Source: Acidilobaceae archaeon (lineage in GTDB: Archaea; Thermoproteota; Thermoprotei_A; Sulfolobales; Acidilobaceae). From it: a DNA stretch of 64,000 nucleotides. The DNA is taken from assembly GCA_038897215.1 (NCBI GenBank), contig JAWAWX010000001.1:480001-544000 (forward strand), given 5' to 3'. Under the pieces are notes generated by a model. The model ran no database searches, was not told the DNA's origin, and saw only the letters and a program-made list of their open reading frames with translations. The position numbers and the translations under genes were made by a program. Position 1 is the first letter of the stretch; each line of letters starts with the position of its first letter. Shown one piece after another: positions 4,591 through 9,068 of this stretch.

Positions 4591-4691
4591 TGGAGCCGCC
4601 GGCGGGATTCGAACCCGCGACCACCGGCTTACAAGGCCGGCGCTATCGGCCCGCGCAGGCTCTCAGGTCTACCGGGCTGAGCTACGGCGGC
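4591..4691 (-). tRNA. tRNA-Thr(TGT) with a 24-nt non-canonical D-arm intron (4645-4668)
   Basis: Reverse complement GCCGCCGTAGCTCAGCCCGGTAG[ACCTGAGAGCCTGCGCGGGCCGAT]AGCGCCGGCCTTGTAAGCCGG...TTCGAATCCCGCCGGCGGCTCCA. Removing the insert restores the cloverleaf. Confidence 0.9.
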
Positions 4692-7861: not shown

Positions 7862-8233
7862 GTGGAGGCTTTCGACTCTAAGGCTCTGGCTGTCAAGGTC
7901 TCTAGCTTAAACGATCTCGCTCGCTTCGCGTCGTCTATGACTCCCGCTATGATCGTGATGCCAGTGTATAGATTCAAGAAGGGCGGGAGAGTCTACTACT
8001 TCCTCCAGACTGTCTACAAGGATTTCTATAAGTACTACGGGGTCCCAGTGATCTACTATTACTCGAGCGACGACGACGGGCTAGACGCGGATAAAGCGAG
8101 ATTCCTCTTATTTAAGGTTGATGAGGAGGGAGAGAAGCTAGAGATCTCGAGTAGAACCAAGCCCGGCTGGATAACAGTGCCCATAGTGAACCTAGAGGAG
8201 AAGCCTGGATTCATTCCCGACGAGCTTCTCTAA
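7862..8233 (+). CDS. Conserved crenarchaeal hypothetical protein
   Basis: VKVSSLNDLARFA ... YKYYGVPVIYYY ... VPIVNLEEKP pattern; GGAGGTGG ribosome-binding site before the GTG. Confidence 0.75.
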   Translation: MEAFDSKALAVKVSSLNDLARFASSMTPAMIVMPVYRFKKGGRVYYFLQTVYKDFYKYYGVPVIYYYSSDDDGLDADKARFLLFKVDEEGEKLEISSRTKPGWITVPIVNLEEKPGFIPDELL

Positions 8234-8237
8234 ACGG

Positions 8238-8298
8238 AGAGCTCAACTCCCGGATTCCTCTTCACCTACTCAGCAAAGTTAAGCTCTATCATCGCTCT
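8238..8298 (-). ncRNA. Box C/D guide sRNA with variant C (AUGAUAG) and D (UUGA) boxes
   Basis: AGAGC-G-ATGATAG-[12 nt]-CTGA-GTAG-GTGAAGA-[12 nt]-TTGA-GCTCT. Both guides are exactly 12 nt and the 5-bp terminal stem is in K-turn register. Confidence 0.72.
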
Positions 8299-8393
8299 TG
8301 CTCGCTCGGGTAACCGCTCCTAGTGGTGTTGATATAGCGGGGCTTAAAGATTATTTATTAGGGAGTTCTTCCTTCTCTGTCCTGGTGTAGTCG

Positions 8394-9068
8394 TTGCCTC
8401 CGCTAATTCCCGAGAATCTCGTAGCTGAGGCTCTAATCACTGCTGTTCTCGCTGTCTACGTGCTCTCCGTGATTGCTCTCACCAAGCCTCTGTACGATGT
8501 TCTGGTATCGAGAAACATGACTCCAATCAGAGCTAAGTACTTCAACAGGAAGATAATCCACATAGCTGCAGGAGGAGTTGTAGCGCTTCTCGTTCCATTC
8601 ATCTACTCTACTCCCCTCCTGCCTTTCCTGGCATCGCTAGCTATCACTGCTCTCCTCGCCTCCGCTAGGCGCTTCAGGCTACTCGACTGGTTCCAGGTTC
8701 CGGATAACCACTATGAGGTCAACTTCACGGTCATGTGGGGCTTGAGCATCCTAGTGTTATGGCTAGCTCTAGGGAGCCCATATCTAGCTGTTCTCCCCGC
8801 ATTGTATATGTCGTTTGGAGACGGCGTGACAGGAATAGTCAGGAACATAGTCGTGAAGACTAGGTCTAAGCACTGGTCCGGGAATCTAGCAATGGCTCTA
8901 GTCTCCGTTCCTCTCGGCTTCCTCTACGGTGGGCTCGTGGGCGTGGTCTCAGCTATAGTGGCTAGTGTCGTTGAGAGGTTCGAGTTCAACCCGGTTGACG
9001 ACAACGTCTTGGTGCCTCTTTCCTCGATGGCGGTTATTCTAGTCTTGGCGCCAGCGTTAGTCATGTAG
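8394..9068 (+). CDS. Dolichol/phytol kinase-like polyprenol kinase
   Basis: NRKIIH, FGDGVTGIV, KHWSG and DDNVLVP motifs; multi-TM protein. Confidence 0.85.
   Translation: MPPLIPENLVAEALITAVLAVYVLSVIALTKPLYDVLVSRNMTPIRAKYFNRKIIHIAAGGVVALLVPFIYSTPLLPFLASLAITALLASARRFRLLDWFQVPDNHYEVNFTVMWGLSILVLWLALGSPYLAVLPALYMSFGDGVTGIVRNIVVKTRSKHWSGNLAMALVSVPLGFLYGGLVGVVSAIVASVVERFEFNPVDDNVLVPLSSMAVILVLAPALVM

Follow-up and report, generated by a model that had tools for sequence, protein, structure and literature searches.

We detected, at positions 8298-8238 of the analysed window (64,000 nucleotides of genomic DNA from a member of the archaeal Acidilobaceae), what is very probably a standard double-guide box C/D sRNA of the Sac-sR10/Iho-sR474/sR33 guide family, in which a compensated kink-turn (K-turn) is combined with a conserved guide to tRNA position C50 and a permuted guide order. 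Judging from the orthologous sequences, the odd letters of its boxes are a compensated swap from G-C to A-U within the K-turn, and no new RNA class. Together with a companion RNA at 55141-55077, the sRNA adds two guide RNAs to the genome annotation, one predicted for tRNA and one for the peptidyl-transferase region of 23S rRNA, and both leave the current picture of C/D RNPs unchanged.

Architecture of the sRNA locus

The sRNA is encoded on the minus strand between ORF 7862-8233 and ORF 8394-9068, for neither of which a Pfam match was found, and its double-guide box C/D layout of about 61 nt can be read directly from the letters of the window (Table 1). This reading agrees with a preliminary description of the locus as a box C/D guide RNA with AUGAUAG/UUGA boxes, 12-nt guides and a stem at the K-turn. 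The UGA and GA cores of the boxes are kept, with a match to the consensus at 5/7 positions in the C box and 3/4 in the D box, and the K-turn has the 3-nt bulge (G-A-U) beside a 5-bp terminal stem that characterizes box C/D RNAs. The motif AGAGC occurs twice in the RNA; the copy that precedes the C box forms the stem closing the K-turn, whereas the second spans the junction of C box and D' guide. In the length of its guides and the spacing of its boxes, the RNA equals active sRNPs exactly.

Table 1. Positions of the sRNA elements, the predicted tRNA targets and the companion sRNA in the window
Feature	Position	Strand	Remarks
Terminal (C) stem, 5' strand AGAGC	8298-8294	-	Pairs with 8242-8238; 5 bp AGAGC/GCUCU
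Bulge nucleotide G	8293	-	5' of C box
C box AUGAUAG	8292-8286	-	G6 to A and A7 to G relative to consensus
D' guide AGCTTAACTTTG (RNA AGCUUAACUUUG), 12 nt	8285-8274	-	Apparent orphan
D' box CUGA	8273-8270	-	From genome scan and direct reading
Loop GUAG, 4 nt	8269-8266	-	Between D' and C' boxes
C' box GUGAAGA	8265-8259	-	GUGAAGA/GUGAGGA stands before the same guide in relatives
D guide GGAATCCGGGAG (RNA GGAAUCCGGGAG), 12 nt	8258-8247	-	N+5 nucleotide is G8251
D box UUGA	8246-8243	-	U1 pairs with C-box A6 (4b:4n pair)
Terminal stem, 3' strand GCUCU	8242-8238	-	Ends 4 nt past stop codon of convergent ORF 7862-8233
Predicted target tRNA-Ala(CGC), U47-C56	11863-11872	+	C50 is 11866, opposite the N+5 nucleotide
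Predicted target tRNA-Ala(GGC), U47-C56	46945-46954	-	C50 is 46951
Companion box C/D sRNA with AUGAUAG/UUGA, Sac-sR103-like	55141-55077	-	12-nt guides; same C and D boxes as 8298-8238

The host genome, a single contig of 1.16 Mb with 54% GC, contains archaeal rRNA and intron-containing tRNAs and encodes L7Ae, Nop5 and fibrillarin (PF01248, PF01798 and PF01269, all above cut-offs). L7Ae would be expected to bind both the terminal K-turn, formed by AUGAUAG and UUGA with the 5-bp stem, and the internal K-loop of CUGA and GUGAAGA, and Nop5 and fibrillarin would assemble next on the L7Ae-bound sRNA. The minimum-free-energy fold of the sRNA alone is no better than that of shuffled sequences (z = -0.96). 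It is dominated by a complementarity between the D' guide region at 8274-8287 (AGAGCUUAACUU) and the RNA's own 3' end at 8238-8250 (GGGAGUUGAGCUCU), both on the minus strand, and this helix is by eye not matched in the sequences of the sister genus g7. Besides, an AT-rich TTTAAG/TATATC stretch at 8341-8365 (+), partly conserved in the related genome G001, lies 30-50 nt from both the 5' end of the sRNA and the start of ORF 8394-9068, and may act as an archaeal promoter region, shared or bidirectional, for the sRNA and this divergent ORF.

Conservation of the sRNA in related genomes

The sole other genome of the genus, G001, has an orthologue in the same gene gap, which reads GGC, G, AUGAUAG, an 11-nt guide, CUGA, ACAA, AUGAAGA, GGAAUCCGGGAU, UUGA and GCC. 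Its C, D' and D boxes are identical to those of the window and its C' box differs at the first (R) position alone; the D guide is identical at 11/12 positions, and the D' guide has diverged. Overall identity between the two genomes is 77% in the sRNA versus 41% and 32% in the flanks. The terminal stem covaries, being AGAGC/GCUCU in the window, GGC/GCC in G001 and GGGC/GCYC in genus g7, and the upstream module of C box, D' box and stem is common to seven orthologues from g7. In the latter the same D' guide stands behind different C boxes, with that of G168 identical to the window's at 11/12 positions. The D guide with the box that follows it is more widely conserved and finds matches in 125 of 151 genomes across the order, with up to two mismatches allowed and mostly zero or one present.

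The orientation of the gene relative to its neighbour varies. By their coordinates, the orthologous sRNA of G020 (L099, compared alongside L102 of G190 with G007:C54 and the window) and the orthologue of ORF 8394-9068 share a strand, the sRNA lying upstream by about 60 nt, and the sRNA is divergent from this ORF in G000 and G007 (G007:C54 and the window), which suggests a small local inversion or a re-insertion. G007 also has a second copy of the sRNA on another contig.

A conserved guide with a probable target in the T-arm of tRNAs

The D guide carries GGAAUCCGGGA, the D' guide of Sac-sR10 and IHOsR474 (supplement of PMC4644070), and by its guide and architecture the sRNA is the local representative of the Sac-sR10/Iho-sR474/Pyrococcus sR33 guide family. 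As in Sac-sR10 and Ignicoccus hospitalis IHOsR474, the guide GGAAUCCGGGA(N) is followed by a D-type box in a double-guide C/D RNA. In those two RNAs, however, it occupies the D' position straight after a canonical-type C box (AUGAUGU and AUGAAGA, respectively) and the D box is CUGA, whereas the sRNA reported here has it as D guide, with AUGAUAG/UUGA in the K-turn and an unrelated partner guide. The same D position is found in the window, in G001 and in genus g7. Pyrococcus sR33 (RF01120) has a D' guide, GGAAUCgGGGAG, that differs from the D guide of 8298-8238 at one position; it differs also in coming from a euryarchaeon, in the position of this guide and in having an unrelated second guide, and its Rfam model reaches 21.8 bits on our sRNA against a threshold of 37.

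The D guide (GGAAUCCGGGAG) forms 10 contiguous pairs with 5'-UCCCGGGUUC-3' (U47-C56) in 18 tRNA genes and 11 pairs with tRNA-Cys, so that the duplex is only 10 bp long, with nine Watson-Crick pairs and one G-U, for most tRNAs. Pairing of at least 10 bp is found with 19/46 tRNA genes and of at least 9 bp with 23/46, while just 7 of 2000 shuffled guides reach five or more tRNAs, and none of the other guides of the top 15 sRNA candidates exceeds five tRNAs. The complementarity to the T-arm, proposed in the preliminary description for a few tRNAs of the window, is real and extends to 19 genes. It also agrees with a published proposal for Sac-sR10, since tRNA Gly-CCC, Pro-CGG and Pro-GGG, cited in Daume et al. 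(2017, PMC5539422), after Omer et al. (2000), as proposed targets of one of its guides, are all among the 19. Dennis et al. (2015, PMC4644070) gave no rRNA target for the guides of Sac-sR10 or Iho-sR474. Several genomes of another family in the order carry GGAACCCGGGA, in which a U-to-C change opposite the invariant G53 turns the G-U pair into G-C.

Read directly on tRNA-Ala, the fifth guide nucleotide counted upstream from the D box faces C50, which belongs to the second pair of the T-stem. The N+5 pair is thus a Watson-Crick G:C50, and the G-U of the duplex falls opposite G53. By the N+5 rule, the D guide would pair with U47-C56 of many tRNAs and probably directs 2'-O-methylation at C50 in their T-stem, so that the conserved sR10-type guide points to a predicted modification at tRNA position 50. 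Because C50 lies in a base-paired stem, the guide would have to act on unfolded or precursor tRNA.

A comparable case is sR64 of Pyrobaculum aerophilum (PMC6009581), whose D guide pairs with the T-arm sequence of many tRNA families and whose other guide is an orphan. The site predicted for sR64 is the T-stem nucleotide G51, in 16 tRNA families, compared with C50 here, and guide sequence and lineage differ. For the D' guide of 8298-8238, a comparison with 16S rRNA, 23S rRNA and tRNAs gave no convincing target, the best match having nine Watson-Crick pairs, two G-U pairs and one mismatch next to N+5. This guide would then be an orphan, which fits the published rule that, in sRNAs directed at tRNA, one of the two guides is usually an orphan (PMC6009581, PMC7994747).

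The same pairing could serve binding instead of modification, if the main role of the C/D sRNP were to help tRNAs fold or to sequester L7Ae. In S. acidocaldarius, Sac-sR10 exceeds all other C/D sRNAs and L7Ae partners in abundance, and L7Ae autoregulation shifts when Sac-sR10 is deleted (Daume et al. 2017, PMC5539422); conserved guide-target pairs that lack methylation competence have been documented (PMC6009581); and a literature search returned no report of Cm50, with no relevant match for position 50 in papers on archaeal tRNA modification. We nevertheless consider a mainly non-methylating role unlikely, as the N+5 pair is a Watson-Crick G-C competent for methylation and the guide length and box spacing equal those of active sRNPs.

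The K-turn pair 4b:4n and the question of a subclass

The preliminary description had pointed to another RNA in the window, at 55141-55077, with identical C and D boxes and likewise with guides of 12 nt, and this observation is confirmed. Both guides of this companion match Sac-sR103 (supplement of PMC4644070), CGUCGACAUAGG/AGGGUCGAUAAC resembling AGCCGACAUAGU/AGGGUCAAAGGG in the same double-guide layout, and orthologues occur in eight genera of the family. Sac-sR103 itself has the canonical boxes AUGAUGA/CUGA and no rRNA target listed in PMC4644070, unlike the companion sRNA, whose D' guide forms nine contiguous Watson-Crick pairs with AUGUCGGCU in 23S rRNA (C1:586-594, in the conserved peptidyl-transferase region) and whose D guide, 25 nt upstream of this site, forms 10 Watson-Crick pairs and two mismatches. 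It is thus predicted to be a classic closely spaced double guide to this region of the 23S rRNA. The 23S gene at C1:1157309-1159524 runs off the end of the contig and resumes at C1:1, with the targets of the companion in the part at C1:558-594, so the assembly represents a circle opened inside the 23S gene.

Two RNAs of one genome with the same variant boxes had been interpreted as a lineage-specific guide-RNA subclass of common ancestry. They also have in common the 11-mer GATGATAGAGC, which occurs exactly twice in the window, and the exact pattern ATGATAG-N12-CTGA-...-TTGA has two occurrences genome-wide, compared with an average of 0.05 over 40 shuffles, none of which reaches two. The pattern is therefore more frequent than in shuffled DNA and the boxes are kept in a relative, with the AUGAUAG/UUGA state of both RNAs conserved in G001 of the same genus. 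The two loci are nonetheless the only ones in the genome, and a scan of 60 genomes of the family for the exact pattern recovered only orthologues of the two known RNAs and a few other hits. Common ancestry is not supported, for each of the two RNAs has a conserved family of its own, and they differ in their targets and have unrelated guides. Nor is the AGC that follows both C boxes a sign of kinship: it pairs with 23S rRNA in the companion, and in 8298-8238 it is part of a D' guide that is kept behind different C boxes in the sister genus. Most other top-scoring sRNA candidates of the genome retain G-C at the pair in question, and one has C-G (GUGAGCG/GUGA).

This pair, formed by C-box position 6 and D-box position 1 and designated 4b:4n, was tallied in 9 orthologues of the 8298-8238 family (genera g1 and g7) and 21 of the 55141-55077 family (8 genera), 30 in all. 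It is Watson-Crick in 30/30 orthologues, in the forms G-C, C-G, A-U and U-A, which bears out the earlier view that the replacement of G6:C1 by A6:U1 is a compensatory change in the K-turn. In the 8298-8238 family all nine are paired (U-A in four, C-G in three, A-U in two), with five double changes and a covariation score of 0.413, compared with 0.187 in shuffled data (0/500 reach the observed score). The 21 members of the 55141-55077 family are likewise all paired (C-G in seven, G-C in seven, A-U in six, U-A in one). With Watson-Crick pairing throughout and four pair types, A-U is one of the states through which this pair drifts; and since orthologues within each family carry G-C, C-G, U-A or A-U at this place, AUGAUAG/UUGA is a transient state and no class marker. 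The orthologue tables thus largely refute the proposed sRNA class, and we regard it as very improbable.

On this sequence evidence, the 4b:4n pair of the C/D K-turn appears to need only Watson-Crick pairing in this archaeal family. In archaeal C/D RNAs it has been described as "strongly conserved as G:C" (Ashraf et al. 2017, PMC5689011), and a much more variable K-turn has already been reported in Pyrobaculum (Lui et al. 2018, PMC6009581). Given the latter report, the sRNA at 8298-8238 is a well-documented example of a known tolerance and not a new kind of RNA. The orthologue tables amount to a natural mutagenesis series, useful for box-tolerant covariance models and for K-turn biophysics.

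Permuted order of the guides

The tRNA guide occupies the D' position, behind the C box, in most of the order and also in three genera of the same family (g6, g2 and g14), whose D guide is (A/G)GCGUAACUUCG, often behind a GC-rich hairpin spacer. Genera g1 and g7 show the reverse order, with the tRNA guide in the D position. The D' guide of the window's sRNA, AGCUUAACUUUG, is identical at 8-10 of 12 positions to the D guide of the g6 and g2 orthologues, so that, with homologous guides in swapped D'/D order, the gene at 8298-8238 is a circular permutation of the arrangement in g6, g2 and g14. The permuted gene adjoins the same neighbour gene in g1 and in part of g7. A hairpin of this kind, GC-rich and 20-30 nt long, stands between D' and C' in sR10-type sRNAs of several genera of the family (L038/L039, L045, L078-L081, L093-L095), compared with the usual loop of 3-6 nt.

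Circular permutation has been described for Pyrobaculum sR56/sR57 and attributed to circular sRNA intermediates (Lui et al. 2018, PMC6009581). There, as in the 8298-8238 family, two guides stand in swapped D'/D order between related genes; the family reported here differs in that the permuted form replaces the unpermuted one in two genera, with no coexisting paralogous family. The permutation would have created new partners in the K-turn, which may then have evolved as A-U, U-A or C-G pairs. We also considered whether the 5' module of 8298-8238 (G-AUGAUAG-AGC...) had been copied from the companion RNA; this idea was rejected, as orthologues in the sister genus carry the AGCUUAACUU guide behind different C boxes and orthologues further away have a homologous D guide.

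We offer, as a tentative and rather doubtful proposal, that the K-turn of this family accepts all Watson-Crick combinations at 4b:4n and, in some cases, Watson-Crick pairing at 3b:3n as well, and that, separately, the sR10-type gene was circularly permuted, possibly via a circular RNA or a tandem-duplication intermediate, so that the tRNA guide came to lie beside the K-turn after having been on the side of the K-loop. In archaeal and human C/D RNAs, by contrast, the two positions have been reported as "strongly conserved G:C / U:U", and such relaxed positions, if true, would point to a lineage-specific relaxation of L7Ae/Nop5 recognition or to a different folding behaviour of the K-turn.

The position of the tRNA guide in most of the order, where it is the D' guide, also allows a shifted reading of the locus, in which GUGAAGA is the C box and the start of the RNA, the conserved guide is the D' guide, and the RNA runs on, antisense to the last part of ORF 7862-8233, as far as about 8209. 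The Rfam sR33 model indeed aligns to 8269-8209 (E 0.058). We find this reading highly improbable: no terminal stem flanks 8269-8209, the C'/D-like letters downstream are not conserved in G001, in contrast to the C box, D' box and covarying stem upstream, and the upstream module is present in seven sister-genus orthologues.

Genome-wide scans and covariance models

The whole 1.16-Mb genome was scanned for the architecture C, 11-13 nt, D', loop, C', 11-13 nt and D with a terminal stem, using a score that by design leaves D-box position 1 and C-box positions 6-7 out of account. A score of at least 15 is reached by fifteen candidates, whereas nothing in the shuffled genome equivalent exceeds 14. 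The sRNA at 8298-8238 reaches 19, joint second genome-wide with a single candidate higher (20), and the companion, called at 55137-55080, scores 16. A chance arrangement of motifs from which no RNA is made hardly comes into consideration, as this score is far above the shuffles, the stem and the K-turn pair covary and the sRNA is selectively conserved relative to its diverged flanks. A relaxed scan (K-turn, stem of at least 3 bp and 9-bp complementarity to rRNA or tRNA) was dropped as noise, with 67 hits versus 59 in shuffled sequence.

At curated gathering thresholds, Rfam reports tRNAs alone in the window. Besides the sR33 model mentioned above, snoPyro_CD (RF00095) also stays below its threshold on the sRNA (23.5 versus 45 bits), and for this reason the family assignment rests on guide and architecture and not on a curated model. 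The expectation that consensus models would score the two variant RNAs poorly holds insofar as Rfam misses them, but canonical-box sRNAs of the same genome are missed too (24.7-38.6 bits versus the cut-off of 45).

The strict scan gives only about 15-17 high-confidence C/D sRNA candidates genome-wide, a small set next to the 128 reported from Ignicoccus hospitalis. One of them, at C1:211079-211128 (+), has GUGAGCG as C box and GUGA as D box and thus a C-G pair at 4b:4n, a third K-turn of the genome that departs from G-C. Two tRNA genes of the window, at 2226-2347 (+, 122 nt) and 4594-4691 (-, 98 nt), were found by Rfam and missed by ARAGORN with default settings, and presumably contain introns. 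With the intron search of ARAGORN, the gene at 2226-2347 is identified as tRNA-Pro(CGG); one of the two had earlier been called tRNA-Met.
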